A model generated the notes under the pieces. That model was given only the letters and a program-made list of their open reading frames with translations. It made no database searches and had not been told where the DNA came from. A stretch of DNA of 47,087 nt, taken from sequence record SRR22947725_2412; one strand, 5' to 3'. A program made the position numbers and the translations under genes. Positions 2,827 through 38,483 of the stretch are shown piece after piece (within the stretch, counting starts at the first letter, position 1; every line of letters begins with the position of its first letter).

Positions 2827-3688
2827 TCTGCACTTGTTCGCGGCAGCGCTCAATCTCAGCTTTCATCGCTACGACCAAACGAGCAATCTCACTATCTGAA
2901 GACTTCGAAGCACAGGTATTTACTTCGCGATTTATCTCCTGCATAAGAAAATCCATTTCGCGACCAACAGGTTCATTTTTGGCAAGCAAATCGGCAAACA
3001 ATTTCATGTGGCCTTCAAGGCGGACTATCTCCTCAGTAACATCAGATCTATCTGTATAAAGAACGACTTCCTGATATAAGCGGTCATTATCTAAATCCAG
3101 ATCCAAGCCCGCTTCGCGAATACGACCTAAAAGCTTTTCTTTAAACTGCTCAACTGTGCCAGTACTCGCCTTTGATAAATTCTTTAAAAAGTCAACTAGT
3201 AACTGCTGGCGGACATGCAAGTCTTTCAGCAAGTGCTCTCCTTCTGTGGTCCGTGAACTGACCAAATTCTCAAGAGCCATAGCCAACGCCTGACGCGCAA
3301 CTTCTGTCGCTTCATCAATATCAATTGTCGGAGCACTCTCATCAACCGCCCCTGGTAATTGCAGGATCTCACTCAAAGAAATAGGTGTTTCTATAGCAAA
3401 AGACTCTTTTAAATGCTCAATATGCTTGAGGTAAGAAGCAATCGCGGCATCATTAAATTGAACCCCTGAAAAAGACGCCGAAAAATTCAACTTCAACTGC
3501 ACATTTACCGAGCCACGAGCCAAATAATCAGGCACCAAAGAGCGCACTACGGAATCGAGGAATACGGCTTCTTTTGGAGGTGAAAAGCGTATATCCAATT
3601 GTTTCCTATTGACTGTCGATATATCGACACTTACCTGATACTTCTCACCAGCCGCTTCTCCACGGCCAAAACCTGTCATACTCTTCAT
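2816..3688 (-). CDS. yicC: YicC/YloC family endoribonuclease
   Basis: N-terminal MKSMTGFGR; C-terminal DVTEEIVRL, GREMDFLMQEINREVNT, REQVQNVE. Confidence 0.95.
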   Translation of the reverse strand: MKSMTGFGRGEAAGEKYQVSVDISTVNRKQLDIRFSPPKEAVFLDSVVRSLVPDYLARGSVNVQLKLNFSASFSGVQFNDAAIASYLKHIEHLKESFAIETPISLSEILQLPGAVDESAPTIDIDEATEVARQALAMALENLVSSRTTEGEHLLKDLHVRQQLLVDFLKNLSKASTGTVEQFKEKLLGRIREAGLDLDLDNDRLYQEVVLYTDRSDVTEEIVRLEGHMKLFADLLAKNEPVGREMDFLMQEINREVNTCASKSSDSEIARLVVAMKAEIERCREQVQNVE

Positions 3689-13741: not shown

Positions 13742-13824
13742 GATTTCTTATGTCTATGTAAATTGATTTATGGAATCACACTTATAAGGCGGATTCTCTA
13801 TTATGGCATATGCCAATGTCTTTA

Positions 13825-14157
13825 TTAAATTGAAAAAGACTCACCGCAACCACAAGTGTTGGTCGCATTAGGATTTTGAAAAACGAAACCTTTACCATCC
13901 AGTCCACCTTGGTGGTCTAGCTGAATGCCTTTCAAGTAGATGGTACTTTTGGGGTCAAGATAAATTTTAAAATCAGTCGCCTCGATGACATTATCTCTTT
14001 CCTTCTCAAAATCAAAAGTCAAAGAATATGAAAAACCTGAACAGCCGCCACCTTTAACGCCAAGACGAAGACCTTTACCTTCCTCTTCCTGACCTAACAA
14101 CTCTTTTACTTTTTCGATTGCAGCGCCAGTCAAACTAATTAGATCTGTTTCACTCAT
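13825..14157 (-). CDS. iscA: A-type Fe-S carrier (IscA/SufA/ErpA, HesB family)
   Basis: GVKGGGCSGFSY and NPNATNTCGCGESF. Confidence 0.93.
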   Translation of the reverse strand: MSETDLISLTGAAIEKVKELLGQEEEGKGLRLGVKGGGCSGFSYSLTFDFEKERDNVIEATDFKIYLDPKSTIYLKGIQLDHQGGLDGKGFVFQNPNATNTCGCGESFSI

Positions 14158-14735
14158 AGCAAAGCCCCTTCTTCTATGGTTTCCACTTCAACTTCAGGAT
14201 CAAACTCATCCTTCAAGAAATTTTTAATCGCCATCAATGTTCCCAAGCTCGAACTTGGACAAGTTGTACATGCACCTTGATACTGTACGTAAACAACCTT
14301 TTTCTCTTCGTCATAACGACGCACGACTATATCGCCACCGTCACCTTGCAAGCCCGGACGGATAGTCCGATCTAAAATCTCTTCTATTTGACGTACTTTT
14401 TCTGGCAATTGTGCACGGCGTTCGTCTTCATCGATGCCTTCTTTGAAATCTGGATTATGGTCAGCAATTAAATCTTGAACCAACTCAATAACATCATCCT
14501 CGATATCATCCCAATCACCATCGCCATTTTGAGAAACGGTAATAACATTTTCAAAAAAGTGCAACTTCGTGACTGTTGGTATGCGAAACAGTTCTTTTGC
14601 CATCGGATTCTTTTCACATTCATCCGGGCCATTATAAGTGACTTTACCTTTAGTTTTGACATCTTTATTAAAGATAAATTTCATCGCCAAAGGGTTTGGC
14701 GTCGGCTGCACAAAGTATTTTAAATCAATCGCCAT
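14154..14735 (-). CDS. Nfu-type Fe-S carrier with Nfu_N domain
   Basis: PTPNPLAMKF (Nfu_N); IRPGLQGDGGD and GACTTCPSS (NifU C-terminal CxxC). Confidence 0.92.
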   Translation of the reverse strand: MAIDLKYFVQPTPNPLAMKFIFNKDVKTKGKVTYNGPDECEKNPMAKELFRIPTVTKLHFFENVITVSQNGDGDWDDIEDDVIELVQDLIADHNPDFKEGIDEDERRAQLPEKVRQIEEILDRTIRPGLQGDGGDIVVRRYDEEKKVVYVQYQGACTTCPSSSLGTLMAIKNFLKDEFDPEVEVETIEEGALL

Positions 14736-14740
14736 AATTA

Positions 14741-15196
14741 TTACTCCGTTGACACAACATCTTTATTATCAAGAGCTGCCTTTGCCGTATGCCATGACAA
14801 AGATGCACATTTAACACGAGCTGGATATTCCCAAATACCTGAAAAAATCGTTAGCTTACCTAATTGGTGCTCGTCTTTATCGGGATTCAATTTACCCGTC
14901 ACTAACTTGTGATATTGCTCAAAGAGTTCTTCTGCATGCTCAAGAGATTTACCCTTCAAAGCTTCTGTCATCATCGACGCAGCTGATTTTGAAATGGCAC
15001 ATCCACTTCCCTGAAAAGAGATATCGGCAATATTATTATCGGCATCAACCGTCAGATAAAGGTTGAGGTTATCACCACAAAGCGGGTTATGTCCTTCGGC
15101 ATAATGACTTGGAGTCTCAATAACGCGAAAGTTTTTCGGGTTCTTATTATGAGACAAAATCATCTGCTGATAGAGTTCACGCATTTCACTATTCAT
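14741..15196 (-). CDS. sufU: SUF-system sulfur acceptor SufU
   Basis: ELYQQMILSH, NPLCGD, GSGCAIS, RVKCA; directly follows sufS. Confidence 0.95.
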   Translation of the reverse strand: MNSEMRELYQQMILSHNKNPKNFRVIETPSHYAEGHNPLCGDNLNLYLTVDADNNIADISFQGSGCAISKSAASMMTEALKGKSLEHAEELFEQYHKLVTGKLNPDKDEHQLGKLTIFSGIWEYPARVKCASLSWHTAKAALDNKDVVSTE

Positions 15197-16425
15197 GAAA
15201 ACATTTCCTTAATCTTAGTAATCGTCTCCGCCAAACGATCAAAATCTTCTTTAGTATTATAGATGGAGAATGAAGCTCGAGCTGTAGCTGGGATTCCAAA
15301 ATGCTTCATCACCGGTTGAGCGCAGTGGTGACCCGTGCGGATAGCAATACCATCCTGATCGACCAAAGTCCCGATATCGTGAGGATGAACGTCATCCATC
15401 CAGAAAGAAATAACTCCGGCTTTATTATCGGCGGATCCAATAATTCTCAAACCATCAATAGCTGACAGCTTTGCCGTACCATACGCCAAGAGCTCATCTT
15501 CAATTTGCTGAATCGCCGGCCAACCTACCTGATTGATGTAGTCTATAGCCGCACCCAGTCCGATCACTCCGGCGATATTCGGAGTTCCTGCCTCTAACCT
15601 AGCTGGCAGTTTATTATAAATTGTCTTTTCAAAAGTCACCGACAAAATCATGTCACCACCGCCTTTCCACGGAGGTAACTTCTCAAGAATATCTTTCTTG
15701 CCGTATAAAACACCTACACCAGTTGGTCCAAACATTTTATGGCCAGAAAAAACCATAAATTCGCAATCCAATTTTTGAACGTCCAATGGGCAGTGCGCCA
15801 CAGTTTGAGCGGCATCGATTAATACCGGAACCTCTAAGGCATGCGCGGCATCAATCATTTTTTTAACGGGGTTAATAGTTCCAAGAGCATTTGAGATATA
15901 AACCACTGATAAAAACTTAGTCTTATCTGTTAATAAGCGCTCAAACTCTTCATAAATCATTTCCCCTTTATCATTGAGGGGTACAACTTTCAAAACTGCG
16001 CCCGTTTGCTCACATAGCATTTGCCAAGGTACAATATTTGAATGATGCTCCATACCAGTTATCAGTATTTCATCACCAGGCTGGAAAGACTTACCATAGG
16101 TATTACTCACTAGGTTTATAGACTCGGTCGTACCACTAGTAAATATAATCTCAGCGGTTTCCTGAGCATTTATAAAAGCACGTACTTTTTCGCGGCTAGC
16201 TTCGTAATCTTTGGTTGCTTCTTCACTTAATTTATGAACGCCTCGATGAATATTCGATGCTTCCATTAAATAGTGTTGAGCTATGCGGTCTGCGACTACT
16301 TGGGGTTTTAATGTGGTGGCGGCATTATCCAGATAAGCAAGGGGCTTACCATGAATTTCCTGCTTCAAAATGGGGAAATCTTCAATGATCTTCTGTTGAT
16401 CCATAAGTAATTCTGCTGTCGGCAT
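15193..16425 (-). CDS. sufS: Cysteine desulfurase SufS (type II)
   Basis: YLDNAATT, MEHHSNIVPW, SGHKMFGPTG (PLP Lys), EAGTP, RTGHHCAQP. Confidence 0.97.
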   Translation of the reverse strand: MPTAELLMDQQKIIEDFPILKQEIHGKPLAYLDNAATTLKPQVVADRIAQHYLMEASNIHRGVHKLSEEATKDYEASREKVRAFINAQETAEIIFTSGTTESINLVSNTYGKSFQPGDEILITGMEHHSNIVPWQMLCEQTGAVLKVVPLNDKGEMIYEEFERLLTDKTKFLSVVYISNALGTINPVKKMIDAAHALEVPVLIDAAQTVAHCPLDVQKLDCEFMVFSGHKMFGPTGVGVLYGKKDILEKLPPWKGGGDMILSVTFEKTIYNKLPARLEAGTPNIAGVIGLGAAIDYINQVGWPAIQQIEDELLAYGTAKLSAIDGLRIIGSADNKAGVISFWMDDVHPHDIGTLVDQDGIAIRTGHHCAQPVMKHFGIPATARASFSIYNTKEDFDRLAETITKIKEMFS

Positions 16426-19775: not shown

Positions 19776-21176
19776 CTAAGCAATGATCTCGTCTACCACA
19801 TAACCTTCAACATCGGTTAAGCGGAAATCACGGCCTGAATAACGGTACGTCAATTCCTCGTGATCAAGGCCCATTAGCCTTAAAATGGTCGCATGAAGAT
19901 CGTGGACATGAACTTTATTCTCAACTGCCCCGAAGCCAAATTCATCCGTCGCGCCATAAATTGTACCGCCTTTGACGCCACCACCGGCCATCCACATAGA
20001 AAAGCCATGACTATTGTGATCCCGCCCCGGCCCCGACTGTTTATCTTTACCTGTTTTAGGGACCTCTACTGTCGGTGTTCGACCAAATTCTCCGCCCCAA
20101 ATAATAAGCGTTTCGTCTAGCATACCGCGCTGCTTCAAGTCTGTTAATAAACCCGCTATCCCCTGTGATGATTCAGCCGCATTTTTCTTGATATTTTTAT
20201 CGATATTAAAGTGATGATCCCATGGTTGTCCGGCGCCATGATAGACCTGTACAAAACGGGTACCTCGCTCTATTAATCGGCGAGCAATAAGTAACTGGCG
20301 GCTCTGAACAGTACTTCCATAAAGGTCGTGAATGTACTGTGGCTCTTTGGTTATATCGAAGGCATCAGTTGCTTCCATTTGCATCTTATAAGCCAATTCA
20401 AAAGACTGGACCCGTGAGTTCAATTGCTGATCTCCTTGGCGCGTACTCCCATGAAGCTTATTGAGTTTGCGAAGTAACTCGAGCTGCTTTTTCTGAGCAT
20501 CATAAGTCACGGTTTTATTTCGAACATTTTCTATAAGTTTATTAATGTCAGTATGTTTTGTATCTATATGAGTACCTTGATAAATCCCCGGCAAAAAAGC
20601 CGAACGCCAATTGCTCGAACCCTTAACTGGAAGTCCACCTGGACACATGGCAACAAAACCAGGCAAATTCTCATTCTCAGTCCCCAAACCGTAATTAATC
20701 CACGCTCCCATACTAGGTCGCGGCAAGGTAAGGTCTCCACAGTTCATCATCATCAGCGAAGGTTCATGATTGGGAACATTAGTGTGCATAGAACGAATGA
20801 CGCACATATCATCAGCATGGGGCCCTAACTCCTGAAAAAGCTCACTGATATCTATGCCGCTTTGACCATACTTTTTAAATTTGAAACGAGAGGCATAAGC
20901 TCCTGCAGTTTGTCTTTCGGTTTTTAAATGAATAGGTAGCTTTTTACCTTCATACTTTTCCAGCATGGGCTTAGGGTCGAAAGTGTCCATTTGCGAAGGT
21001 CCGCCATTCGCTAAAATGTGTATCACGTATTTGGCTTTTGGACGAATATGAGAAGGTTTTGCCAGCATAGGGTTATACCTTTTCTTCTCCATGGCTCCTA
21101 ATTGAGCTAGGCCCAACATCCCCATGCCCATTCCGGCACTGTTTAAAAAATCGCGTCTATTTATATTAATCGACAT
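19776..21176 (-). CDS. DUF1501 domain protein (Tat-exported)
   Basis: NRRDFL Tat motif, GGPSQMDTFDPKP, RPSMGAW, WDHH, GEFGRTP, GRDH, HVHDLHAT. Confidence 0.93.
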   Translation of the reverse strand: MSININRRDFLNSAGMGMGMLGLAQLGAMEKKRYNPMLAKPSHIRPKAKYVIHILANGGPSQMDTFDPKPMLEKYEGKKLPIHLKTERQTAGAYASRFKFKKYGQSGIDISELFQELGPHADDMCVIRSMHTNVPNHEPSLMMMNCGDLTLPRPSMGAWINYGLGTENENLPGFVAMCPGGLPVKGSSNWRSAFLPGIYQGTHIDTKHTDINKLIENVRNKTVTYDAQKKQLELLRKLNKLHGSTRQGDQQLNSRVQSFELAYKMQMEATDAFDITKEPQYIHDLYGSTVQSRQLLIARRLIERGTRFVQVYHGAGQPWDHHFNIDKNIKKNAAESSQGIAGLLTDLKQRGMLDETLIIWGGEFGRTPTVEVPKTGKDKQSGPGRDHNSHGFSMWMAGGGVKGGTIYGATDEFGFGAVENKVHVHDLHATILRLMGLDHEELTYRYSGRDFRLTDVEGYVVDEIIA

Positions 21177-24051
21177 ATAAAAACTCGTTACTCATCATTA
21201 ACACCTGCGCTAACCCATCAAAGGCACTATAATTTGGCCGCTTCTGTTGCTTCTTAAAATCTTGACTGATAGGAATTTTTTCATTAGAAGTAGGCATCGT
21301 CATGGCCATTTCTACTGGCCACAAAAAGGCGTCTGAATTGGTCGAGTCCTTAGCGTCAACAATCAAGTCTATATAATCACCCGCCGCAACTTCTATATTT
21401 TCCAATTCTGTCGGAACAGAGCCGGCACGACAGTCCCATTCCCCCAGCTTTTGGCCATTATGCATAATCAACACTCTAACTCCATCTCCCTTTGTACTGG
21501 GGTGCTTGAGAAGACCACTAATAGAAAGCTTACCTGTCTTATGCATTTTGCAGCGACGAACAACGGCAATATTATCTTTACCGGGGTGCCCTCCGCGCTC
21601 TGTCAACATGGCATGGCCGAGCTTTTTATTTGGAAAGCTTTTGCTAATCTGCCAACGAGATTTATTAAAGAAAGTAAACTCAGTAAATTCCTGTAATTTA
21701 TCGTCATCATTAAGAGTCGCGAAGCCAAAGAGCCACTCAGGTAAGACGCGCTCCTTAAAGGATGCCTCTGACTCAATTAAATACTTTTGGCAAAATTCAA
21801 CCTCCTCAGGCAGAGGGGGACGACCATAAACGCGCTTAAATACTGCCTCTATTTTCTGAAGGCGGTCACCTTTAAGTGGACCTGAAATCATCCGCGAAGA
21901 ACGCAACATAAAGGGCGAATTCATTAAAAATAAGCCTTGCTGCGGAACAATTGTATTCGAACGCGATTCACAGGTGATTTCAGCCGCAGGAAAGTCAAAT
22001 GCTTTAGCTGCACCGGATATACCGTCGCGTTTGGTAAAGCCATAAATCGTTCTGTGGGGCTGATACTTACCCAAAAGAAGCGTTACTGAAGGCCCACCCT
22101 TAAAACTCGCCAATTTCCCCGTGGATTGCACTACTGAGTCACGCAACTCTTCCCAGCCGAGGCGACGACGATTCATTTTCCATAAGTAAATATTGGCGCC
22201 ATCTTTTTCGGCCATATCTGGACGAGAATCACTCTTTTGTTGATAAACTGCAGAAGTCATAATCAGCTTATTTAATTTTTTGATAGACCAACCATTTTCA
22301 ATGAACCAACGAGCTAGGTGATCTAATAATTCAGGATGTGAAGGCTGACTCCCAAGAGCACCAAAATTGCTCGGTGTATCAACTAATCCACGGCCAAAGT
22401 GCCAATGCCAAACCCGATTCACCAACACCCTTGCAGTCAAAGGATTTTGTGGATCTGCTATACTTTGAGCTAATTCTAAGCGGCCACTACCCTTAGTAAA
22501 TTTTTCGTGTGATTTTTCATAACTCAGAGCCTGTAAAAAGCGACGCTCAACAGACTCCCCACGACTCGCCTTATTACCGCGGATAAAAATATAAGGTTTA
22601 ACAGGTTTTGCTTTATCTTTGACTACCATAGCCCGACCTGGAGAACCATGGCTCGAAAAATGGGCCTTCAACTTATTATCTATTGCTGTTATTTTATTAT
22701 CCTCGGCATTACTGGCGTAACGCTTCACATCATTTGACTCAATTAATTTTCTAAATGAATCACCAGCAAATGAATGATAAATCTTGGGGTATTTCTCTTT
22801 GTTTGCGATAACTTTTTGAATAAGCTTTTCATATAAAACAAAGAGATCATTTTTAGTTTTTACAGGAACAGAGCGAAGTGCCTCTTTTAGGACCGGAGCA
22901 GTAGACTTAAGCTTCAAAGTCGCCGCTACCAAGTCTGGAAGCTTATTTTCATCTCCATTTAAAAACTTATTCCACAAGCCAAAAAATGGGTCCTTCTTGC
23001 GCTGGCGGAAAAGGAAAAGTTTGACATCTGCCACTAGCGTACGACGCATTTGCCGGCCAGAGCTATCAATCAGCTTCAGGTTTTTTTCTCCTGCTTGAGT
23101 TCGGCCTATATAATTAATGTACTCATGAGCGAATTTTTGCCAATCTGCAAAAAAGCCATCGCGATACTCCTGATAAATATCGTCTTTTTCGGCCTTGAGT
23201 TTGGCAGCTTCTTGCTGATATTTTGCATAGAGCTTCTTGTCAGTTGGATAAGAAATAACCGGTAATTCTTCTGCCTTAGGCTCGAAGGTGCTGGCAAAAA
23301 TACCATAGAGGGAATAATAATCGGCCGTCGGTATAGGGTCAAACTTATGGTCATGACAACGGGCGCAGGCAACGGTCAGGCCAAGAAAACCCTGAGTTGT
23401 CACATCGATTCGATCATTGATAATTTCCTGTTGCCGGTTTAAAAAGCGCTCCGCGGCAGTCTGAAAACCAAGAGCAGCCAGGTCTCTTTTGTCTTGTAGT
23501 TTAATTTGGTCGGCTGCCAATTGTTCAATAATGAAGTCTGTATAAGGCTTGTCCTGATTAAAAGCCCGAATTAGGTAATCTCGATAGGTGTACGAAAAGG
23601 GGTAGTTCTGGTTTCTACCGGCAGGCAAAAAGCCCATAGTATCGGCAAAGCGCGCAACATCCATCCAATGACGGGCCCATTTCTCTCCATACTCAGGTTG
23701 AGCCAATAACTTATCAATCAATTTTTCGTAGGCCCCCTCAGAAGAATCATTCTCAAATTCAGCAACTTGAGCAGCTGTTGGGGGCAAGCCTATGAGATTG
23801 TAATACGCGCGGCGAATTAAAGTTCTCTTATCGGCCTTTGCAGAAGGTGTCAGTGACTTATTCTTTAATGACTGCAAAATATAATGGTCGATGTCTGTTT
23901 GACACCAAGAGTCTTTTTGGGGTATCGGCTTTACCGCTAAAGCTTGCAGCGACCACATCTCTGATTTTTGCTTTTCCAAAATTTCAGGAGAGATCTCGTA
24001 GGCTCCAACCGAGTAGGATATAACACAAACATAGAAAATAAAATTCTTCAT
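21166..24051 (-). CDS. DUF1549 + DUF1553 (PSCyt2/PSD1) protein with CxxCH
   Basis: RTLIRR..GLPPT, YGEKWARHWMDVAR, CARCHDHKFDP, SGRLELA..NPLTARV.VNRVW, PSHPELLD; ATG 24051 follows GAGGAAG (track start 24063). Confidence 0.93.
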   Translation of the reverse strand: MKNFIFYVCVISYSVGAYEISPEILEKQKSEMWSLQALAVKPIPQKDSWCQTDIDHYILQSLKNKSLTPSAKADKRTLIRRAYYNLIGLPPTAAQVAEFENDSSEGAYEKLIDKLLAQPEYGEKWARHWMDVARFADTMGFLPAGRNQNYPFSYTYRDYLIRAFNQDKPYTDFIIEQLAADQIKLQDKRDLAALGFQTAAERFLNRQQEIINDRIDVTTQGFLGLTVACARCHDHKFDPIPTADYYSLYGIFASTFEPKAEELPVISYPTDKKLYAKYQQEAAKLKAEKDDIYQEYRDGFFADWQKFAHEYINYIGRTQAGEKNLKLIDSSGRQMRRTLVADVKLFLFRQRKKDPFFGLWNKFLNGDENKLPDLVAATLKLKSTAPVLKEALRSVPVKTKNDLFVLYEKLIQKVIANKEKYPKIYHSFAGDSFRKLIESNDVKRYASNAEDNKITAIDNKLKAHFSSHGSPGRAMVVKDKAKPVKPYIFIRGNKASRGESVERRFLQALSYEKSHEKFTKGSGRLELAQSIADPQNPLTARVLVNRVWHWHFGRGLVDTPSNFGALGSQPSHPELLDHLARWFIENGWSIKKLNKLIMTSAVYQQKSDSRPDMAEKDGANIYLWKMNRRRLGWEELRDSVVQSTGKLASFKGGPSVTLLLGKYQPHRTIYGFTKRDGISGAAKAFDFPAAEITCESRSNTIVPQQGLFLMNSPFMLRSSRMISGPLKGDRLQKIEAVFKRVYGRPPLPEEVEFCQKYLIESEASFKERVLPEWLFGFATLNDDDKLQEFTEFTFFNKSRWQISKSFPNKKLGHAMLTERGGHPGKDNIAVVRRCKMHKTGKLSISGLLKHPSTKGDGVRVLIMHNGQKLGEWDCRAGSVPTELENIEVAAGDYIDLIVDAKDSTNSDAFLWPVEMAMTMPTSNEKIPISQDFKKQQKRPNYSAFDGLAQVLMMSNEFLYVD

Positions 24052-24242
24052 TCTTCCTCGCACACATAGCTCATTTTACTTATGTACTCATAAGTCTTGA
24101 GTTAATTACACACATCTTAAAATAAGTTCACACAATTCTTATTTTAGGAAAGTATAATGTATCACCAAGCCTAAAGAATATGAAATTTTTGGATTCTTTT
24201 TGTACTTTTCGCCTTAATTTCAACTCTGGTAAAAAAAGCCTA

Positions 24243-29164: not shown

Positions 29165-29893
29165 TTATTTCAACCATTCTTCTAATTCATCGGCACCGCC
29201 GATATGGCGACCGTCTATATAAACCTGAGGCGTCGTCTGCTGGCCCGTTACAACACGTAGAGAACTCAAACTCAAACCCTGGGTGCCAAGCTTAATCTCT
29301 TCATACTGCATATTCGCTGATGCCAATGCTTTTTTAGCTCTGGTGCAATGAGAACAACCCGGCTTAGTAAATAAAGTCGCCTTACTTGGCAATTTTGCCT
29401 CAGGAGCAATGGCCTTCAGCATGGTGTCTGCATCACTTACCTCAAATGGATCGCCCGGCTTATCGGGTTCAATAAACATTTTTTCAATGATGCCATCTCT
29501 AACCAGCATGGAGTAACGCCAAGAGCGCATGCCAAAGCCAAGATCCTTTTTATCAACCAGCATGCCCATCGCCTCAGTAAACTCACCATTACCATCCGGT
29601 AAAACTTTGACTGATTTTAAGCCCTGCTCCTGAGCCCATGCATTCATAACAAAAGAATCATTAACTGACAAGCAATAAATATCATCAACACCCTCGTCTT
29701 TTAAGATTGGAGATAATTCTTCATATCTCGGCAAATGAGTCGTCGAACATGTTGGTGTGTAAGCTCCTGGCAATGAGAAAACTATAACGGTACGTCCCTT
29801 AAAAAGTTCTTCGCTGTTAAGGTCTATCCACTCATTATTCTGACGCGTTCTAAATGTTACTTGAGGAACTGCCTGTCCTTCTCTGCTTTTCAT
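29165..29893 (-). CDS. pgdX: Hybrid peroxiredoxin-5/glutaredoxin (glutathione-dependent peroxidase)
   Basis: PGAYTPTCS, SVND.FVM.AW, GFGMRSWRYSM; C-terminal Grx domain with CSHC and TPQVYIDG..IGG. Confidence 0.93.
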   Translation of the reverse strand: MKSREGQAVPQVTFRTRQNNEWIDLNSEELFKGRTVIVFSLPGAYTPTCSTTHLPRYEELSPILKDEGVDDIYCLSVNDSFVMNAWAQEQGLKSVKVLPDGNGEFTEAMGMLVDKKDLGFGMRSWRYSMLVRDGIIEKMFIEPDKPGDPFEVSDADTMLKAIAPEAKLPSKATLFTKPGCSHCTRAKKALASANMQYEEIKLGTQGLSLSSLRVVTGQQTTPQVYIDGRHIGGADELEEWLK

Positions 29894-29953
29894 AACTTAC
29901 TCCTTATTATCAGTTGTTAATTCAACTATAATACCGACTCATATTTAAATAAA

Positions 29954-29990
29954 ATTTATTATATTTATAACTTTAATATATAAAATATAT
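29954..29990 (-). promoter_or_regulatory. Putative OxyR binding site
   Basis: Minus strand ATAT-N7-ATAT-N7-ATAA-N7-AAAT versus consensus ATAG-N7-CTAT-N7-ATAG-N7-CTAT; region is extremely AT-rich. Confidence 0.45.
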
Positions 29991-30035
29991 CAACTAAAGG
30001 GTAAAAATAAACCTCTCTTCGCTTACTATCATTGA

Positions 30036-30965
30036 ATGAAAAAAGCCTTCACAGATATTCGTCACAGTCAAAGCTTCCTCGCCATAGGCGCTGTTCTCTG
30101 CAGTCTTCTATGGGGCAGCGCTTTTCCTGCTATTCGCTATGCTCATAACTATTTTGATAAAACACTTTTTGTCAATCACTTATCTTTTGCTGGATGGCGC
30201 TTTTTGCTCGCAGGCTTTCTAGTGCTCATTTTCATAAAGCGTAAAAAAGAAATGTTCAAAAATTGCCCGAAAAAAGGTTTATTGGCAGTCGCCCTTTTTC
30301 AGGTAGTCATCCAGTACAGTCTTTTTTACTGGGGCTTAAACATTGCTCCTGCTGTTCTAGGAGCCATCTTGGTCAGTACGGGTAGCTTTTGGTGGGTTTT
30401 ATTAGCACCATTGGTCGATAAAAGTGAAACCATCAACACTAAACAATTCATCTGCTTAACTCTTGGTTTTGTCGGTGTGTGTCTTTGTATGATGAATAAA
30501 CAAGGTGGTGGCGACAATTACTGGAGCAGCCTCTTCTTTATTCTCTCAAGCTTAAGTGGTACTGTCGCGGTACTCTATGTAAGGCCAATGAATAAAAAAG
30601 TCCCACCCCATTTTCTAGCTGGGTCATCACTCATACTCGGCGGCATGATTCTCCTCTTAGCGACGGCGAATAATAGCTTCACATGGCTTATGCAGATGAG
30701 TGGCCCCTTGCTCTTATTAACTCTATGGTTGGCTTTTGTCTCGGCGGCGGCATTTTCTTTATGGTACTACCTAGTGACTATATTCGATGTCCCCCGTCTA
30801 AGTGGCTATCGCATGCTTATTCCTGTCTGCGGTGTACTCGAGTCAGTTCTTTTTCTAGACGATGAATTTTTATACTGGAATACAGCCTTAGGCGGTCTCA
30901 TTGTTTTGACCGCCATTTTCATGCTCGAAAGATTGAAGAAAAAAAACTACTTTAAAGATGCCTGA
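30036..30965 (+). CDS. EamA/DMT family transporter
   Basis: About 10 TM helices, LLWGSAFPAI, GWRFLLAG, SAAAFSLW, two EamA halves. Confidence 0.9.
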   Translation: MKKAFTDIRHSQSFLAIGAVLCSLLWGSAFPAIRYAHNYFDKTLFVNHLSFAGWRFLLAGFLVLIFIKRKKEMFKNCPKKGLLAVALFQVVIQYSLFYWGLNIAPAVLGAILVSTGSFWWVLLAPLVDKSETINTKQFICLTLGFVGVCLCMMNKQGGGDNYWSSLFFILSSLSGTVAVLYVRPMNKKVPPHFLAGSSLILGGMILLLATANNSFTWLMQMSGPLLLLTLWLAFVSAAAFSLWYYLVTIFDVPRLSGYRMLIPVCGVLESVLFLDDEFLYWNTALGGLIVLTAIFMLERLKKKNYFKDA

Positions 30966-31798
30966 AGAAACTTAAGCATTTTTGCCTTATTCTCAGCACT
31001 AAAAAAAGCTTTACCGCCATGGCCTGCATTTTTAACGACAACAAGCTCTGCAGCTAAAGAAGCTTGTATATAAGCAGCCAAAATAGCTTCGGATTGATCC
31101 ATAAGAACGGTTTTATCTTTATCGCCATGAAAAATTAAAAATGGCGGATCATCCTGAGTAACGTAGTATCTCGCTGAAGCTTTCTTCGCTAACTCAACTT
31201 TCGTATCCGCGCCACCACCCAATAGTTTATAGACTACAGAACCCTCTTTATTAGCTCGATGAGGTTGAGTCTTAGACCGCAAAATAAAATCAGTTGCGCC
31301 ATAGAAATCAATGACTGCCCTGACCTTAGAAGATACAGCAAGATGCCCCCCTACATTGCCTTCCGTGAAAGAATCTCCACCTGAAGTCCCTACTAAAGCA
31401 GCAAGATGTCCACCCGCACTAGAACCGGCTACGGCAAAACGCTCCGAGTCCAAATTATACTTATCTGCATTAGCTCTTAACCAACGAATAGCGCCTTTAC
31501 AATCGTGAATTTGTGCTGGGAACTGGGCCACATCGGTTAATCGATAAGAAATACTTGCTACGGCAAAACCATGACCGGTCATCCATTGGATTGAGCAATT
31601 ATCTTTACTGCCCTTGTGCCAACCCCCACCATGTATCCAAACCACTAAAGGTAATTTTTTGGTCGCCTTTTGAGGTAAATAGAGATCAAGTTTTAAGCTT
31701 TGATCATTAACGACGGCAAATTCTAGATTCTCTATTTTTTTATCTTGAGCGAAAAGCTGAATAGACAAAAATAAACATACACACAGCCATTTTTTCAT
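30947..31798 (-). CDS. Secreted alpha/beta hydrolase (HSL/BD-FAE-like esterase)
   Basis: Signal peptide; HGGGW, GSSAGG, HGDKD, AGHG. Confidence 0.9.
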   Translation of the reverse strand: MKKWLCVCLFLSIQLFAQDKKIENLEFAVVNDQSLKLDLYLPQKATKKLPLVVWIHGGGWHKGSKDNCSIQWMTGHGFAVASISYRLTDVAQFPAQIHDCKGAIRWLRANADKYNLDSERFAVAGSSAGGHLAALVGTSGGDSFTEGNVGGHLAVSSKVRAVIDFYGATDFILRSKTQPHRANKEGSVVYKLLGGGADTKVELAKKASARYYVTQDDPPFLIFHGDKDKTVLMDQSEAILAAYIQASLAAELVVVKNAGHGGKAFFSAENKAKMLKFLQASLK

Positions 31799-32340
31799 TT
31801 AAATAACATCGCTTTTTTCAAAGTCTTCACTTGCTCACCCAAGCCTAATTTTTCACAAATAGCATAAGAAAATTCCAATGATGTCCCTGGGCCGCGGCTG
31901 GTAATAATCTGGCCATCAACTTCAACCCGGTTTTCGGTGTATTGTTCACAGCACTGAAGCTCATCTTCTTTCGAAGGGTGAGAAGTCACTTTCTTATCAT
32001 CAATAATACCGGCTCTTTCCAAGGCAACTGGAGCTGCACAAATAGCACCGATTACTTTCTCTAATGAATGGGCATCTTGGATCATTTGTTGAACTTCATC
32101 ACTATCGCGCAAATGATGCGCTCCTGGGAGACCTCCCGGTAAAATCAACGCATCTAATTCATCGACAAAGAGATCATCCAGTAAACAATCCATCTTTATA
32201 ATGACATCCCTAGCACCTTTGACTTCCATACCAAAAACACCAACGCATACAACATCGACACCAGCACGGCGTAAAACATCGACCGGAGTCACTGCTTCGA
32301 TCTCTTCAAAACCATCGGCAAATAAAACTGCTGCTTTCAT
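31795..32340 (-). CDS. yajL: DJ-1/ThiJ/YajL family protein
   Basis: GFEEIEA, DVLRRAG, LPGGLPGA, AICAAP, TSRGPGT. Confidence 0.92.
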   Translation of the reverse strand: MKAAVLFADGFEEIEAVTPVDVLRRAGVDVVCVGVFGMEVKGARDVIIKMDCLLDDLFVDELDALILPGGLPGAHHLRDSDEVQQMIQDAHSLEKVIGAICAAPVALERAGIIDDKKVTSHPSKEDELQCCEQYTENRVEVDGQIITSRGPGTSLEFSYAICEKLGLGEQVKTLKKAMLFK

Positions 32341-32382
32341 AACAAACTCCCAAAAGCTTTAAAAGGGGGATCCTATTATCTT

Positions 32383-32423
32383 AAAATAAAAAAGGGGGAG
32401 CTGTGAAAATTCACAACTCCCCC
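32383..32423 (-). terminator. Rho-independent terminator of trxA
   Basis: Minus strand GGGGGAGTTGTGA-ATTT-TCACAGCTCCCCC followed by TTTTTTATTTT. Confidence 0.85.
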
Positions 32424-32446
32424 AATAAATTTTGCTGGACTAATTC

Positions 32447-32773
32447 TTAAAGCTGAGCTTTAATTCTAGCAACAAGATCAGCTTCTTTCTGCGCTGCACC
32501 TACAAGAGTTTCAACAGCTACACCATCCTTAAAAACAATCAAAGTGGGTATAGAAGAAACGCTAAATTTTTGAGCAGAAGTACCTGCGTCATCAGTGTTA
32601 CACTTAGCTACTTTTGCATCAGCACCAATTGCATCAGCTACTTTGTCAATGACTGGAGCCAACATGCGGCAAGGACCACACCATGGAGCCCAGAAGTCAA
32701 CCAGTGTTACACCTTCGGCAATTGTACTTTCGAAATTACTGTCATCAATAATCAAAACCTTATCAGAGGCCAT
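32447..32773 (-). CDS. trxA: Thioredoxin
   Basis: VDFWAPWCGPC and SIPTL; AAGGAG SD 6 nt before ATG 32773. Confidence 0.97.
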   Translation of the reverse strand: MASDKVLIIDDSNFESTIAEGVTLVDFWAPWCGPCRMLAPVIDKVADAIGADAKVAKCNTDDAGTSAQKFSVSSIPTLIVFKDGVAVETLVGAAQKEADLVARIKAQL

Positions 32774-32976
32774 CGTCATCTCCTTATTAAAACCATAGGT
32801 ATGAAAATAGTCATGGTTATCACAGATTCTATAGTTCTTTTTGTTAAATAATAGAGTTTTCTATTTATGCTTGTGTTTTCACTTAAGATACTTTTGATTT
32901 ATAGGTATTTATTGTGTAGAATGACTGCTGTCTGTTGCGAAATTTCAGACTTAAGTTACTGGAGTGATTAATAAAC

Positions 32977-33846
32977 ATGAAGCTTGTTTACGAAGTATGG
33001 CTCGATGCCGGTATGAGAACCGACTGTATAGGCGATGAGAACCTGCATTTGAAAAAAAATGACTGGGCCGTTATCGACTTTGAACACCACAAAGATTATG
33101 GCCGCATTCTCTCTTGTCGTGGACAACTTCCTGAAGGCGTTGACCAAAACTCAATGCCCAAAATCAATCACCGGGCGACACTCCACGATCAAAGTAAAGC
33201 TCACGAAAACTACATTCATAATAAACGGACTCAAAAACAGGCCATTGCTATTGTCGATGAACACGGCTTGGGCATCACTGTTGTTGATACCCATATGAGT
33301 TTTGACCGCAAAAAGCTGACTTTAAAATTTACTTCTCCATCGCGTGTTGATTTTCGTAATCTCGTTCGCGAATTAGCGCGCAAACTGCAAGTAAAAGTTG
33401 AACTGCGACAAATCGGCGTTCGCGATGTGGCTAAAATGCGAGGCGGCATCGGGACTTGTGGACGGACACTTTGCTGCACTTCTTGGATTCACGAATTTCA
33501 AAGCGTCAATGTACGCATGGCCAAAGATCAGGGGCTAAGCCTTAATACCAATGGTATCTCTGGACAGTGCGGTCGCTTGAAGTGCTGTCTCAGTTTTGAG
33601 CATGAAGGCTATAAAATGATCACTAAAAATATGCCGTTGGCTGGTAGCCGTTGCTTTGTCAAAGGCGGTGAAGGCCGTGTAATCGACATACAATTACTCA
33701 AAGAGAGTATTACCGTTCGCTTAAAGCAAGACGGCCGGATTGTAAATGTCATGCGCGAAGACCTCAAAACTAAAGCTGACTCAATTGCAGGAGGCGGAGG
33801 TTGCGGTACAGAGGGAGATTGTAATTCTGGTGGTTGTAGTGTCTAA
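32977..33846 (+). CDS. ricT: RicT/YaaT (PSP1 domain) Fe-S protein with Gly/Cys-rich C-terminal tail
   Basis: RVDFRNLVREL, ELRQIGVRD, GTCGRTLCC, AKDQGLSLN, SGQCGRLKCCL; tail GGGGCGTEGDCNSGGCSV. Confidence 0.93.
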   Translation: MKLVYEVWLDAGMRTDCIGDENLHLKKNDWAVIDFEHHKDYGRILSCRGQLPEGVDQNSMPKINHRATLHDQSKAHENYIHNKRTQKQAIAIVDEHGLGITVVDTHMSFDRKKLTLKFTSPSRVDFRNLVRELARKLQVKVELRQIGVRDVAKMRGGIGTCGRTLCCTSWIHEFQSVNVRMAKDQGLSLNTNGISGQCGRLKCCLSFEHEGYKMITKNMPLAGSRCFVKGGEGRVIDIQLLKESITVRLKQDGRIVNVMREDLKTKADSIAGGGGCGTEGDCNSGGCSV

Positions 33847-36037
33847 AGAGGCAGAACAGAATTTAGCTAGTATCCAAGCTGAAGAAGCTTCATCTGCAAA
33901 AATTCTTTTTCTGTACTTATTTGCCACAGTTCTCTTTCTGTTACCGATCAAATTCGGAGCTTCTTGGCTAACCGGCCACTTACCGGCATATCCAGATAGC
34001 TTTTTATTCTCGTCATTCCCCACAAGCTTTTTAGGGCTTTCCTCAGCATTACTCTTGGTGGCGGCTCTCATTATCTTTAAGCCTCAACGAATCAGCTCTC
34101 ACTCTATTAAAATCATCGGTTCATGGCTCTTTATTACCCTCAGCTGTGCTCTTTTCGGGCATTACTCTGAAGATATGCCTTTTTACATGAATTCGATCAA
34201 CCAAATGTTAACGGCCACAACTTTAGTTATCACTGCTGCTATTCTCATCGATAACGAGCCACGCGCCAAAGAATTTATAATAGGAGGACTCTGTGCCGGT
34301 CTTATTTACATCGTCTTTAACGGACTCTACCAATACTTTTGGGGCTTTGCAGATACGCGGGCTTTTTTTGAAGAGCAAGTAGCACAAGGTATCCAATTCC
34401 CCGCAGGCCAAAAAAGCCGAATTATGCAGACACTTGTCTACAGTACCTTCACCATATCAAACAGTTGTGCCGCCCATATTATACTAACCGCTCCCTTACT
34501 CGCTCTAACACTCTTCAAATACTTTAACCCTCAACACCTTCAAGCAGTTAAAGCAAGCGCCTTCACTCTTATCTTTTATGGTTGTTGTAATGCTTACAGT
34601 GGTTCCACGATCACTCTTGGTTTAATCACCATAATTATAGGCCTTATTTTCTTTCTCAAAAGTGAAGAACTCCCACCTGTCGCTTATCACGTCTTTAGCA
34701 TCTTAACTATTCTTTCAACTCTTCTTGTACTCGGTTTCACGCGCAGTCGAGCAGGTATAGTTTGCTTTTTCATCGGCCTCCTTTTAGCCCTCGCCATTAC
34801 TGTCCAAAAGCGCCATATTCGATTCGGAGCTATCGGAGCCCTCATTGTTACCGGTATACTCGGAGCTTTCATTGCTCCAACAGTGGGCTCATTCCAAGTA
34901 CGTTTAGGCTATTATTCAACCCTGTTAAAGTCATTTGCAAATGACATGTGGGGAGCTGGTTTTGGAAGTTTCGTCAGCAACTATAATATTATGAAAGACG
35001 CCGGAATTGAAGAGTCCCAAGTGCCCCACTCTTTCTTTTTTGGTTACCTAGGCCAAGGTGGGCTTATCGCCGGAATCGCTGTTCTAACTTGCTTTGCAAT
35101 TACTCTTTATGCCATCAATAAGAGTCACTGCGATCGCCTTACAAAATTCAGCCTGATTGCAGGATTCGCTGCATGGTTCCTCCATGCCCAATTGGACTTC
35201 AACATTATGATTATTGGCACCTTATGTTGTGCTGCTATTATTGGCCTACTCGCTTCACAAACTAATGACAAACAACATCAAAGTTATAAAAAAGTCATTA
35301 TTCTCTTTTGGCCGGTGGTTGTCATTAGTCTTGCAATAAATATTCCCATGCTCCAGCAACAAAGAAGCTACTTCTACCTTTATCAAACTCTGCAAAATCA
35401 AGAAAAGATAGCGAACCTAGATGTCGTTAAAAATATCACTGCAAAAATTTCTAAAATAAATCAAAAATCCTCTAAACACCTGATTGAAAGTGCCCGCTGG
35501 TCAATGGGCCAAAACATGTTCAACCGCGAGCTTACTCCGATACAAAAGTTTGAGTACTTAAAGTTTGCCGAAGACAATCTTTTAAAAGCAGCCGATATTT
35601 CACCTAAAGAAACAGGGGTCTTTACCAGCCTCTCTCGAGTCTATATACTTCAAAAAAATCTCGACCTTGCTCAACAAATGCTCAACAAAGCTTTTGCCCT
35701 TTATCCCTATTCCTCGACAGCGCTGCAACTAGAATCTGAAATCATCGCTACTTTGAGACATAGATTCCCTAAAAACCCGACCTACCACGAAGCCTATTTT
35801 AGAAGTCAAATAAAAAGTCTAGAAATAAAATTAGGCAAGCTCAGGTTCCTACACCACCTCAAGTTATCTGACGAAGAGTTAAATTCTATCGTGACATCTC
35901 TTGATAAAACCAGCAGCAAACTATACACTGAAATGGACTTTTTTGACAAATCTGATATCTCACTTGCGACAAACGATATAAAACAAAGAATATCAGAAAT
36001 CCTTCAGGAAGCTAAAGAACTTGTAAAACAGCCATAA
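33839..36037 (+). CDS. O-antigen ligase (Wzy_C) family membrane protein with C-terminal TPR
   Basis: Many TM helices; STFTISN, TRSRAG, GAGFGSF, PHSFF..GQGG, LHAQLDF; TPR-like helices near the C-terminus; GTG 33839 chosen as start (track start 33746). Confidence 0.78.
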   Translation: MSKEAEQNLASIQAEEASSAKILFLYLFATVLFLLPIKFGASWLTGHLPAYPDSFLFSSFPTSFLGLSSALLLVAALIIFKPQRISSHSIKIIGSWLFITLSCALFGHYSEDMPFYMNSINQMLTATTLVITAAILIDNEPRAKEFIIGGLCAGLIYIVFNGLYQYFWGFADTRAFFEEQVAQGIQFPAGQKSRIMQTLVYSTFTISNSCAAHIILTAPLLALTLFKYFNPQHLQAVKASAFTLIFYGCCNAYSGSTITLGLITIIIGLIFFLKSEELPPVAYHVFSILTILSTLLVLGFTRSRAGIVCFFIGLLLALAITVQKRHIRFGAIGALIVTGILGAFIAPTVGSFQVRLGYYSTLLKSFANDMWGAGFGSFVSNYNIMKDAGIEESQVPHSFFFGYLGQGGLIAGIAVLTCFAITLYAINKSHCDRLTKFSLIAGFAAWFLHAQLDFNIMIIGTLCCAAIIGLLASQTNDKQHQSYKKVIILFWPVVVISLAINIPMLQQQRSYFYLYQTLQNQEKIANLDVVKNITAKISKINQKSSKHLIESARWSMGQNMFNRELTPIQKFEYLKFAEDNLLKAADISPKETGVFTSLSRVYILQKNLDLAQQMLNKAFALYPYSSTALQLESEIIATLRHRFPKNPTYHEAYFRSQIKSLEIKLGKLRFLHHLKLSDEELNSIVTSLDKTSSKLYTEMDFFDKSDISLATNDIKQRISEILQEAKELVKQP

Positions 36038-36071
36038 TTTTGAGCGTCACTATTTAGGAGCATCTCGAAAC

Positions 36072-38483
36072 TTGATACGTTTAATTATCCTCTCACTCCT
36101 CCTTTTTACATCTACCGTTACTTGGGCTCAAAAAGATCTCGTTCTGACCGGTGGTGTTATCAACTCTGCTAATGACTTTCAAGTAGGCCATGAAAACTGG
36201 GCCCGCGTTAAATTCACACTTCAAAATAGCTCAAAACGCGTTCGTTCTGTAAAGATACAGTTCAAGCACGCTTCGGCTCCAGAAGCCGTTTATGAGTACG
36301 AATTGGATATACCTGCGTTATCTCAGATGAGTCATCAATTCCCAGTCGCCATGGGAAGCGCGGCCCACCTCTCTAAGAAAAACAACAAAGCCCCCAAGGG
36401 CAAGAAGAATAAGAAAAAAATCAATCGCGTTGATAGCACTTATAAACTTACTCTCATGGAAAAGGTTGGTGACCGCTACTTACCTGTTAAAAACAATATT
36501 CCCATAGAGTGCGTTATGGATTTCCGCGATGTTAGCAAAAAACCGGCTATCGCACTTTTTACCGATGAAACAGTAAACATTGGTAACCTCTCTCAAAAGC
36601 TAGGTTATGGCGATGGCCACTTCCGCATGACTTACGTCCACAAAGGCAAATGGGCTGAACACTGGAGCGAATACTCCGCCTTTGACGCCTTGGTTTTTCT
36701 CGACCCTATTTTCGATGATAGCCACCCATTACTGCTCAAAGCAGTTAAAGACTACCTTAAAATGGGTGGAACTGTCATTTTTGCTCACCACAACGCCATT
36801 TTAAATGCCGCCAAGACTCAGTTCGCAGAGATCTTACCTGTCATTCCCTTAAAAACTCGACAAGTCAACAGACTTCCAGCTCTCCAAAAATACTTAAAAA
36901 GTGACGAAATATACTCTGAGTTTGGAATGACATTTGTAGATACCGTCGCCAAAGAAAATTCATACGTCCCTTGTTCTGCTGAAGAAATGCCCGTGATTGT
37001 TTGGAAAAAAATTGGCCTGGGCTTAGTGGGTGTCATCAATATCTCACCAACCCAAGGTGCATTTCACAGCAATAACAGTTTTAGCAAAGCATGGAGAAGC
37101 CTTTTCGCTCCTATCCAAAGACCCGCCGATATCTCAATGTTACCGACTAATGATGCGAAAGAATCAGTCAATATGCTCAATGGTCTGACAATTCCTGGTC
37201 CATCAGTCATCCTTAATTATATGATTGTCTATATCATCCTCATTATTGTCGTTTTTATAATCTTAGCAAAACTCAAGAAAACACTTTTTGCTTGGGGCAT
37301 GGCCTTAGTAATTTCCATTGCGATGACCGGTATTATTTTCAAACATGCCTATTCATCTGGAGAAGGCAGTAAAAGCCGAACTGCAGCCGTTTTCAGTCAA
37401 ATCCCTGTGGTCGACAATGGTCCTGTCGTGCAAATCTATTCAGTTTTTTCAAAAAGTAATGATGAATTGGATTTCAATGCCCAAATAATTGAGGACCGCT
37501 TCCGAAAATTACCGAAAGTTAAAAATCGTCTGCGCAATTTCACATCTGGCCAAAAAGGCAGCTATAAAACAGCCCAAATTCAGGAAGTAATCACCGGTAA
37601 TTACACGGGGGAAACCGCCACTCTAAAAGGTCTTAAAATTCAGGGACTCTCGGCGAGAACTTTTACTAAAATTTCCCGTAGCCATATGAGTGGCGCCGCG
37701 CCTTCTTATATTTCTTTCAATAACAAAGGCCTATCCATCACCTCCGATGAATTTCCTTCTGAGCTCTCCCAAGCCGAGAATATATTTGTCTGTGGCCGAA
37801 ATGGCGTCATTCCTCTCGAATTTGCCAATAATACTCTTACTCCTAAAACTAATCCTGCGATCAAAGGCAAAGCCGACGAATACTTAAGGAAACTTCTTAC
37901 CAGCCTAAAGTTTAGAAGCCCGACACTTTGCTACTCTGTAAAAGGCAGCGCAACCGACAATATTTTAGACGACACTTTCGAAGTCAACGGCATGAATGTC
38001 TACATGGCGCCACTCATAGAGCAGATCAGTGGCGATGTCTTCCTGCCAGGGGAATTCACTCAACTCACGGGTTCTTCTTCGTCTAGCTATCTTTACCGCG
38101 ATGGTATTTGGAGCGATGTCAGACATATGGGCGTAAAGCCTGCCAAGTATAAGTTTAATGTCGCCCTCCCTTTAGGTTATGAAGCCATGAAAACTAATGA
38201 GCTTATCATTGATTTCGCCTATATTAATCAAAGTGGTAATATTCTCGTAGATCTTACTTATGCAGGTCAAAAAGCAGAGAAGTCATCTGATGGCCTCTAT
38301 AAAATAAAAGTAGATCCTAAAAGTATCAAAAAAGGGCTTATAGAGATTTCTCTTCTTGCCAATGTTAAAGTGAAACTCACAGATAATCTAGAAATTCACA
38401 AAGCGAATTCATGGAAAGTTAAACATCTTAAGGTTGGCGTAAAAGGGACCTTTGATAAGCAGCATAAAGAATTGAGGTTTTAA
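36072..38483 (+). CDS. Large exported membrane-anchored protein, ABC-exporter associated
   Basis: Signal peptide; GATase-like alpha/beta segment (YSAFDALVFLD...DYLKMGGTVIF); central TM hairpin; large C-terminal soluble region; TTG start after AGGAG. Confidence 0.6.
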   Translation: MIRLIILSLLLFTSTVTWAQKDLVLTGGVINSANDFQVGHENWARVKFTLQNSSKRVRSVKIQFKHASAPEAVYEYELDIPALSQMSHQFPVAMGSAAHLSKKNNKAPKGKKNKKKINRVDSTYKLTLMEKVGDRYLPVKNNIPIECVMDFRDVSKKPAIALFTDETVNIGNLSQKLGYGDGHFRMTYVHKGKWAEHWSEYSAFDALVFLDPIFDDSHPLLLKAVKDYLKMGGTVIFAHHNAILNAAKTQFAEILPVIPLKTRQVNRLPALQKYLKSDEIYSEFGMTFVDTVAKENSYVPCSAEEMPVIVWKKIGLGLVGVINISPTQGAFHSNNSFSKAWRSLFAPIQRPADISMLPTNDAKESVNMLNGLTIPGPSVILNYMIVYIILIIVVFIILAKLKKTLFAWGMALVISIAMTGIIFKHAYSSGEGSKSRTAAVFSQIPVVDNGPVVQIYSVFSKSNDELDFNAQIIEDRFRKLPKVKNRLRNFTSGQKGSYKTAQIQEVITGNYTGETATLKGLKIQGLSARTFTKISRSHMSGAAPSYISFNNKGLSITSDEFPSELSQAENIFVCGRNGVIPLEFANNTLTPKTNPAIKGKADEYLRKLLTSLKFRSPTLCYSVKGSATDNILDDTFEVNGMNVYMAPLIEQISGDVFLPGEFTQLTGSSSSSYLYRDGIWSDVRHMGVKPAKYKFNVALPLGYEAMKTNELIIDFAYINQSGNILVDLTYAGQKAEKSSDGLYKIKVDPKSIKKGLIEISLLANVKVKLTDNLEIHKANSWKVKHLKVGVKGTFDKQHKELRF

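Follow-up and report, generated by a model that had tools for sequence, protein, structure and literature searches.

The stretch of DNA described here (sequence record SRR22947725_2412; 47,087 nucleotides, hereafter the window) derives from a Lentisphaerales bacterium of the PVC group and carries, on its plus strand at positions 32977-33846, an open reading frame (ORF) of 289 amino acids plus stop for a protein of the RicT (YaaT/PSP1) family that ends in a short glycine- and cysteine-rich tail. The gene is almost certainly a ricT orthologue: the NCBIfam model NF041131 (RicT_YaaT_fam) matches residues 30-240 with 227.5 bits against a cut-off of 70, the PSP1 domain (Pfam PF04468) is found at residues 62-146 (33160-33414, E 2.8e-21), and the N-terminal sequence MKLVYEVW is common to orthologues. 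The core with two CGRxxCC motifs that a preliminary description of this DNA had reported is present as CGRTLCC (C161, C166 and C167; residues 161-167, 33457-33477) and CGRLKCC (C198, C203 and C204; residues 198-204, 33568-33588), separated by 30 residues, and none of the six cysteines varies across 56 aligned homologues. The resulting pattern, CX4CCX30CX4CC, is identical in spacing and residue numbers to that of Firmicute RicT (Adusei-Danso et al., mBio 2019, PMC6751060), and the four [4Fe-4S] ligand residues (C161, C166, C198 and C203) are all in place. By every testable criterion, the window gene encodes an ordinary member of the RicT family.

Twelve cysteines are found in the protein, namely the six of the core, three in the tail, and C17, C47 and C226. 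C17 (33025-33027) and C47 (33115-33117) lie in an N-terminal β-domain stretch (33025-33117), while C226 (33652-33654), probably a relic, lies in a small C-terminal β-barrel (residues 225-259, 33649-33753) whose strands are predicted by AlphaFold2 (AF2). A variable linker of low conservation follows (residues 260-271, 33754-33789), in which the predicted local distance difference test score (pLDDT) falls to 65 or less, and then the tail itself, GGGGCGTEGDCNSGGCSV (residues 272-289, 33790-33843), with C276, C282 and C287 encoded at 33802-33804, 33820-33822 and 33835-33837. The stop codon (33844-33846) comes directly after the tail, and the extent of 33790-33846 first given for it is correct with the stop included; all features of the gene lie on the plus strand. 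The AF2 model, built on the 56-sequence alignment, has a mean pLDDT of 78.8, rising above 90 in the PSP1 domain. A sequence search of the PDB with the window RicT returned no RicT structure at E ≤ 1, and a Foldseek search of the PDB gave nothing at E ≤ 0.001, the β-domains being matched only by small barrels of the Tudor/SH3-like kind.

Conservation of the tail and of other cysteines outside the core

The clearest result concerns the tail cysteines. The preliminary description had suggested looking for them in orthologues, and C276, C282 and C287 are each present in 22/22 sequences of an alignment of tail-bearing proteins that share 58-90% identity. The non-cysteine positions within residues 264-289 have a mean top-residue fraction of 0.43 in the same 22 sequences, and in the six DNA sequences compared the cysteine codons swap synonymously between TGT and TGC. 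Because the cysteines are invariant while their neighbours vary and their codons turn over, the tail is not a product of chance low complexity, and the three cysteines are under strict purifying selection. The same observations, extending down to 58% identity, make it very improbable indeed that the tail is a neutral extension without function, even though such an extension would be compatible with the disorder predicted by AF2 and with the wide differences between lineages (basic, acidic or Asn-rich) in RicT C-terminal extensions. The protein carries a clade-specific, strongly conserved cysteine tail.

Among the relatives examined, the tail is found in a Lentisphaerales clade and in a single other protein, P0068. 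Within the best 120 database hits plus the query, all 19 sequences at 58% identity or more have three or five cysteines in their last 30 residues, and of the remaining 102 only P0068 has three or five there. In the GTDB order of Lentisphaera marina, which NCBI taxonomy places in the PVC group, class Lentisphaeria, order Lentisphaerales, RicT was found in 5/8 genomes, and all five proteins are tailed. The tailed proteins form a monophyletic group in a FastTree tree (22 tips, support 1.0) that divides into two subclades, that of the window with three tail cysteines and that of Lentisphaera marina with five; the outgroup of this tree is itself not monophyletic, and we therefore draw no conclusion on the ancestral state. 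The closest named RicTs come from a Lentisphaeraceae metagenome-assembled genome (MAG; 89% identity), a Lentisphaerales MAG (84-88%) and Lentisphaera marina (61%), the closest overall being metagenomic, and the G+C content of the window is about 41-43%. The literature that we found on Ric proteins was Firmicute work only and does not describe a cysteine-tailed RicT.

RicT C-terminal extensions in general vary sharply by lineage (P0020-P0121, P0276-P0395) and may be Lys/Arg-rich, Asn-rich or acidic, such as ...LKKLED. Among the longer RicT forms listed, some are fused to a DNA polymerase III delta-prime domain (PF13177) and others to carboxyltransferase domains.

Comparison with other members of the family places the tail in a broader pattern of extra cysteines. 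We classed RicTs by the location of at least three cysteines outside the core, as class N (region aligned to residues 1-62), D (205-262) or T (any 25-residue window after 262). The tailed clade (n = 22) comprises 20 proteins of class T and two of class N+T. The 132 other PVC-type RicTs (102 database hits and 30 loci from genomes of the class), which like the tailed set are top hits with redundancy kept and not a random sample, fall into D (84), N+D (16), N (15), T (1, P0068) and none (16). The C-terminal β-domain thus bears at least three cysteines in 100/132 of them, most often as the triads 226/228/258 or 226/228/231 (window numbering), with cysteine at position 226 in 125/132, at 228 in 102/132 and at 258 in 75/132; one tail-less lineage has its triad in the N-terminal domain, at about positions 17/36/47. 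On these counts, the RicTs of this group, which lacks RicA and RicF, are unusually rich in clustered extra cysteines, often exactly three.

The tailed proteins share with these relatives the same core, the lack of RicA and RicF and the presence of at least three extra cysteines per protein. They differ in where these cysteines lie, since those of the relatives are embedded in the C-terminal β-domain (or in the N-terminal domain), whereas the tailed clade has lost 228 and 258: all 22 have Val or Ile at both positions (Val at both in the window protein), and C226 is left in 14. P0068, an independent tailed lineage, is also without C226, C228 and C258. It looks as if the cysteine set had moved from the β-domain to the terminus in the tailed clade. 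C17 and C47 are cysteine in 20/20 tail-clade sequences that cover the region, compared with 39/132 and 20/132, respectively, of the other PVC RicTs. Across the family as a whole, 148 representatives of 50%-identity clusters divide into none (112), D (15), N (12), T (8) and N+T (1). Cysteine-rich C-terminal modules therefore recur in 9/148, several T-class representatives having four-cysteine modules of varied spacing, and one of ten tailed or otherwise odd RicTs comes from a Deltaproteobacteria MAG.

RicA, RicF and RNase Y in the window and its relatives

The tail gains its interest from the RicA-RicF-RicT complex of Bacillus. There, RicT alone ligates a first cluster, and Ser mutants of C161, C166, C198 and C203 lose iron; the second cluster is held by C167 of RicT, C134 and C146 of RicF and C141 of RicA, C204 ligates neither, and deletion of the RicF or the RicA C-terminal tail blocks complex formation (PMC6751060, with which the cluster facts given in the preliminary description agree). 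In Fig S5 of that source, the RicF C-termini of three Bacillales species are Gly/Cys-rich with four cysteines spaced C-x3-C-x5-C-x-C and one to five residues between the last cysteine and the end, RicA ends like ...NNSCSL, and the three full Firmicute RicT sequences shown there have no cysteine beyond the core.

The window protein is thus like the RicTs of Bacillus subtilis and Geobacillus in its match to NF041131, its six-cysteine motif with identical numbering, its PSP1 domain and its small C-terminal β-domain, and RNase Y co-occurs in genomes related to the window. It is unlike Firmicute RicT in adding the three-cysteine tail together with C17, C47 and C226, and in belonging to a lineage that shows none of the RicA and RicF on which the Firmicute proteins depend. 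The resemblance to the partner tails noted at the outset holds up against Fig S5: the tail is Gly/Ser/Cys-rich and disordered, sits at the extreme C terminus with its last cysteine near the end (one to five residues), and offers three invariant cysteines where three ligands are needed from the partners. The differences are that RicF (YlbF) and RicA (YmcA) carry their tails on helical-bundle proteins of the Com_YlbF family, and that the spacing here is C-x5-C-x4-C. Eighteen low-complexity residues do not allow homology with the RicF or RicA tails to be demonstrated.

Neither ricA nor ricF was found in the window, as first described. A Pfam scan of 45 ORFs of at least 100 amino acids (five internal or overlapping ones of 50 being left out) detected no Com_YlbF protein, and a hidden Markov model built from 35 Com_YlbF proteins of related genomes matched nothing at E ≤ 10 among six-frame ORFs of at least 40 amino acids in the window, while positive controls matched. 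Nor did Pfam detect a Com_YlbF domain within the window RicT itself, and PF06133 is absent from the 120 that were listed among 307 longer RicT forms, so fusions of the two families did not appear there. In the three closest genomes, Com_YlbF exceeds its cut-off in 0/3, the weak matches sitting inside ORFs of 184-590 amino acids, and RNase Y is present in 3/3 (E ≤ 1.6e-128). Two of the RNase Y matches are over the curated cut-off, whereas the third scores 429.5 bits where 454.35 are required. In a sample of 201 genomes of the class, RicT exceeds its cut-off in 188 and Com_YlbF in four. Two of these four matches lie inside ORFs of 397 and 899 amino acids, and the remaining pair, of 136 and 139 amino acids, are small ORFs without cysteine; with RicT in 188/201 and a credible Com_YlbF in 2/201, genomes of the class thus lack RicA and RicF as a rule. 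Of 14 control genomes, six have RicT over its cut-off, and exactly these six have RNase Y over its own; they are B. subtilis, T. thermophilus, D. radiodurans, B. thetaiotaomicron, T. maritima and L. lactis. Com_YlbF exceeds its cut-off in two of the six and in Haloferax.

A second study argues that RicT-RNase Y is the working entity, that RicA and RicF merely deliver RicT, and that RicT is more widely distributed than RicA and RicF even inside Firmicutes (PMC10470536). The stable binding of RicT to RNase Y in Bacillus would suit an arrangement in which RNase Y, or a second RicT protomer, completes the second cluster and the tail serves some other role such as contact with RNase Y or the membrane. 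Even where RicT has no extra cysteines and RicA and RicF are lacking, C167 and C204 stay invariant, and some other arrangement must therefore use them there. We nevertheless consider this explanation of the tail quite unlikely. RNase Y was rejected as a ligand donor because the enzymes of three Lentisphaerales genomes have just three conserved cysteines, which are scattered and form no cluster motif, and the restriction of invariance to cysteine in an otherwise variable tail points to ligand chemistry and not to a contact surface.

An unexpected counterpart to the tailed RicT emerged from the GTDB phylum of Lentisphaera marina, which we take to be Verrucomicrobiota. In a sample of 301 genomes of this phylum, RicT exceeds its cut-off in 125 (131 at E ≤ 1e-10) and Com_YlbF in 42, and the two occur together in one genome only (G151, whose Com_YlbF has no cysteine), so that RicT is present in 1/42. 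About 17 such genomes would be expected under independence, a comparison that is no statistical test, because the split probably runs between classes. RicT was found in 0/41 of the remaining Com_YlbF genomes (loci L056-L097), and the single Com_YlbF protein of every one of these bears a C-terminal cysteine cluster, with at least three cysteines in the last 30 residues in 40/41 and a cluster about 45 residues from the end in the other. RNase Y is present in 4/5 of these genomes that were tested. These Com_YlbF tails, rich in Gly and Cys or in Cys, Asp and His, belong to the same kind as that of the window RicT, and several end in ...GGCS where the latter ends in ...GGCSV; they differ in being carried by the other Ric family, in genomes without detected RicT. 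No study combining YlbF, YmcA or Com_YlbF with Verrucomicrobia was among the papers listed. Since cysteine-tailed Com_YlbF proteins occur in 41/301 genomes of the phylum, the RicF-type tail is not restricted to Firmicutes, and the statement that RicA and RicF largely are so restricted needs correction. The cysteine-tailed Com_YlbF may be regarded, from its sequence and its genomic context, as a RicF-like protein working without RicT. Because this kind of tail is also found on the Com_YlbF proteins of the phylum, it behaves as a portable module, which supports a general picture in which such tails supply metal ligands and are portable within the Ric system.

A possible second metal centre and its candidate ligands

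Our preferred explanation of the whole, which we would stop just short of calling probable, is that the window protein is a RicT whose tail acts in cis to ligate a second metal centre. As in Bacillus, the core would hold the [4Fe-4S] cluster that RicT ligates alone. The tail, a portable set of cysteine ligands of the RicF/RicA kind, would fold back on RicT and bind the second centre, for which another [4Fe-4S] cluster is the most likely identity, with C167 (or C204, or C47) as the fourth ligand. RicT alone could then reach the two-cluster state that Bacillus needs before RicT passes to RNase Y, and in the Lentisphaerales clade the tail would replace the cysteine triad that most other PVC RicTs have in their C-terminal β-domain. 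The parts of this proposal differ in strength. A functional role of the tail in binding a metal or a cluster is very likely, and Fe-S is slightly favoured over Zn as the nature of the centre; C167 in particular is a doubtful candidate for the fourth ligand. Ligation of an Fe-S cluster by the tail in cis is plausible but unproven, and substitution of the tail for RicA and RicF at C167 is possible but unproven, with some evidence against it.

Several observations weigh against the proposal, either as a whole or in its specific form. The AF2 model has pLDDT values below 50 in both cysteine loops (residues 157-174 and 195-200) and in the tail (269-289). The likeness of the tail to those of RicF and RicA is one of composition, position and disorder, with no positional alignment. 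The preliminary description had argued from the tail supplying exactly three cysteines; the tail does have three, but the sister subclade has five, and C17, C47 and C226 are spare, which makes the argument unsafe. C17 and C47 are moreover fixed in the clade; as possible ligand donors, they allow for a site in which C167 has no part. In the RicT of one Lentisphaerales MAG (L002:3469-3534), C167 is replaced by Ser through a single TGC-to-AGC change while the three tail cysteines are kept; the substitution may be genuine or may stem from misassembly. The existence of cysteine tails on Com_YlbF proteins in genomes without RicT weakens a model of three tail cysteines plus C167, as such tails can bind something without RicT and need no C167. 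Finally, 16/132 PVC RicTs have no extra cysteine cluster, and RicT therefore evidently works without an added triad.

The comparative pattern is similarly open to more than one reading. The absence of RicA and RicF is class-wide and mostly found where RicT is tail-less, and is hence untied to the tail. The passage from triad to tail fits a supply of cluster ligands in cis, but equally fits a structural Zn site, and the replacement rests on about two independent events. Of the original idea that the protein is a one-protein replacement for the RicAFT complex, the conserved tail and the lack of partners in relatives stand, whereas the absence untied to the tail and the C167S variant tell against it.

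In an alternative that we regard as rather unlikely, the tail cysteines and the clade-fixed C47 or C17 form an autonomous metal knuckle (Zn or a small Fe-S centre) that pins the tail to the N-terminal domain or creates a docking surface and is unrelated to cluster 2 and C167. C47 or C17, each present in all 20 sequences of the tail clade, would make up a full four-ligand set with the three tail cysteines, and the MAG protein that lacks C167 has kept its tail. Independent RicT C-terminal modules, moreover, mostly have at least four cysteines (CxxC...CxxxC, CxxCxxCxxC) and would be self-sufficient sites, and cysteine-tailed Com_YlbF proteins occur where there is no RicT. On the other hand, the frequencies of C17 and C47 in tail-less RicTs given above show that they are not tail-specific partners. 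C167 and C204 are invariant across 302 sequences with L002 as the sole exception, and of this pair only C167 has a known role, in the second Bacillus cluster (PMC6751060), so the invariance of both here needs explaining.

The cis-acting tail may also be seen as one case of a more general and more speculative scheme, which we think rather unlikely to hold in full, whereby the three non-RicT ligands of the second RicT Fe-S cluster are an evolutionarily mobile set supplied in four ways. They would come in trans from the tails of RicF and RicA in Firmicutes, in cis from a C-terminal tail like that of RicF in Lentisphaerales and several further lineages, and in cis from cysteine triads in the N- or C-terminal β-domain in the majority of the remaining PVC bacteria. 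Certain genomes of the same phylum would have no such ligands on RicT, a cysteine-tailed Com_YlbF serving without RicT beside RNase Y.

Genomic neighbourhood and wider significance

Upstream of ricT and divergent from it lies a thioredoxin gene (32447-32779, minus strand; Pfam Thioredoxin), the nearest of a run of redox and stress genes at 29165-32779 (minus strand) that also encodes a peroxiredoxin-glutaredoxin fusion, a BD-FAE esterase and a DJ-1/PfpI protein; an EamA transporter gene (30036-30965, plus strand) lies within the run, and the stretch from the esterase to ricT is common to the two closest relatives only. Such company could indicate that the tail is a redox-sensing thiol switch, tuning RicT under oxidative stress through reversible disulfides or thiol modification. 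A published discussion lists redox sensing as a role of Fe-S clusters, and a title cited proposes that RicAFT may respond to redox changes. We find a thiol switch improbable, as thioredoxin adjoins ricT in L001 and L002, the two closest relatives, whereas three other tailed Lentisphaerales loci (L003, L054 and L055) lack this adjacency, and three or five cysteines spaced by Gly-rich loops at the extreme C terminus fit, in our judgement, cluster-ligand tails better than known disulfide switches.

Downstream, a gene for a polytopic membrane protein of 763 amino acids is called at 33746-36037 (plus strand; Wzy_C, E 2.7e-5, below cut-off), which would overlap the tail. A homologue follows ricT in 5/5 Lentisphaerales loci, with alignments that begin at residue 45-55 or later; as the homology begins past the ricT stop, the overlap with the tail is spurious, and the true start of the gene is probably near 33878. 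The next gene (both within 33746-38483, plus strand) encodes an 803-amino-acid protein with no Pfam match. Elsewhere in the window, an ISC-type Fe-S assembly cluster (12407-16425, minus strand) comprises genes for a cysteine desulfurase (Aminotran_5), an IscU-like protein (NifU_N), Nfu (Nfu_N and NifU) and an A-type carrier (Fe-S_biosyn), and is followed by ThiI. Genes for a helicase that resembles XPB/RAD25 and has a damage-recognition domain, for a pseudouridine synthase and for a YicC-like endoribonuclease (514-3688, minus strand) adjoin ruvB and ruvA, and at 19776-24063 (minus strand) a PSCyt2/PSD1 (DUF1549/DUF1553) protein is paired with a DUF1501 protein, a pairing characteristic of PVC bacteria, Planctomycetes included.

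What the two Fe-S clusters do in the Ric/Y-complex, and for what reason RicT depends on RicA and RicF to get to RNase Y, are questions studied so far in Bacillales only, where the second cluster lies at an awkward interface of three proteins. If the tail does act in cis, a RicT with RicF-like ligands of its own would allow spectroscopy, structure determination and studies of RNase Y binding on one polypeptide. The protein comes from a culturable, non-pathogenic genus, in which Lentisphaera marina carries the five-cysteine form. Were the scheme of mobile ligands also true, the tailed RicT would be a naturally occurring Ric module with both clusters on a single chain. The main value of the finding would thus lie in a tractable single-chain system and in an entry to a broader pattern of mobile cysteine ligands in Ric proteins. 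The cysteine triads of most PVC RicTs, together with the mutual exclusion of RicT and cysteine-tailed Com_YlbF within the phylum, suggest that Ric function outside Firmicutes is organised unlike the textbook complex.

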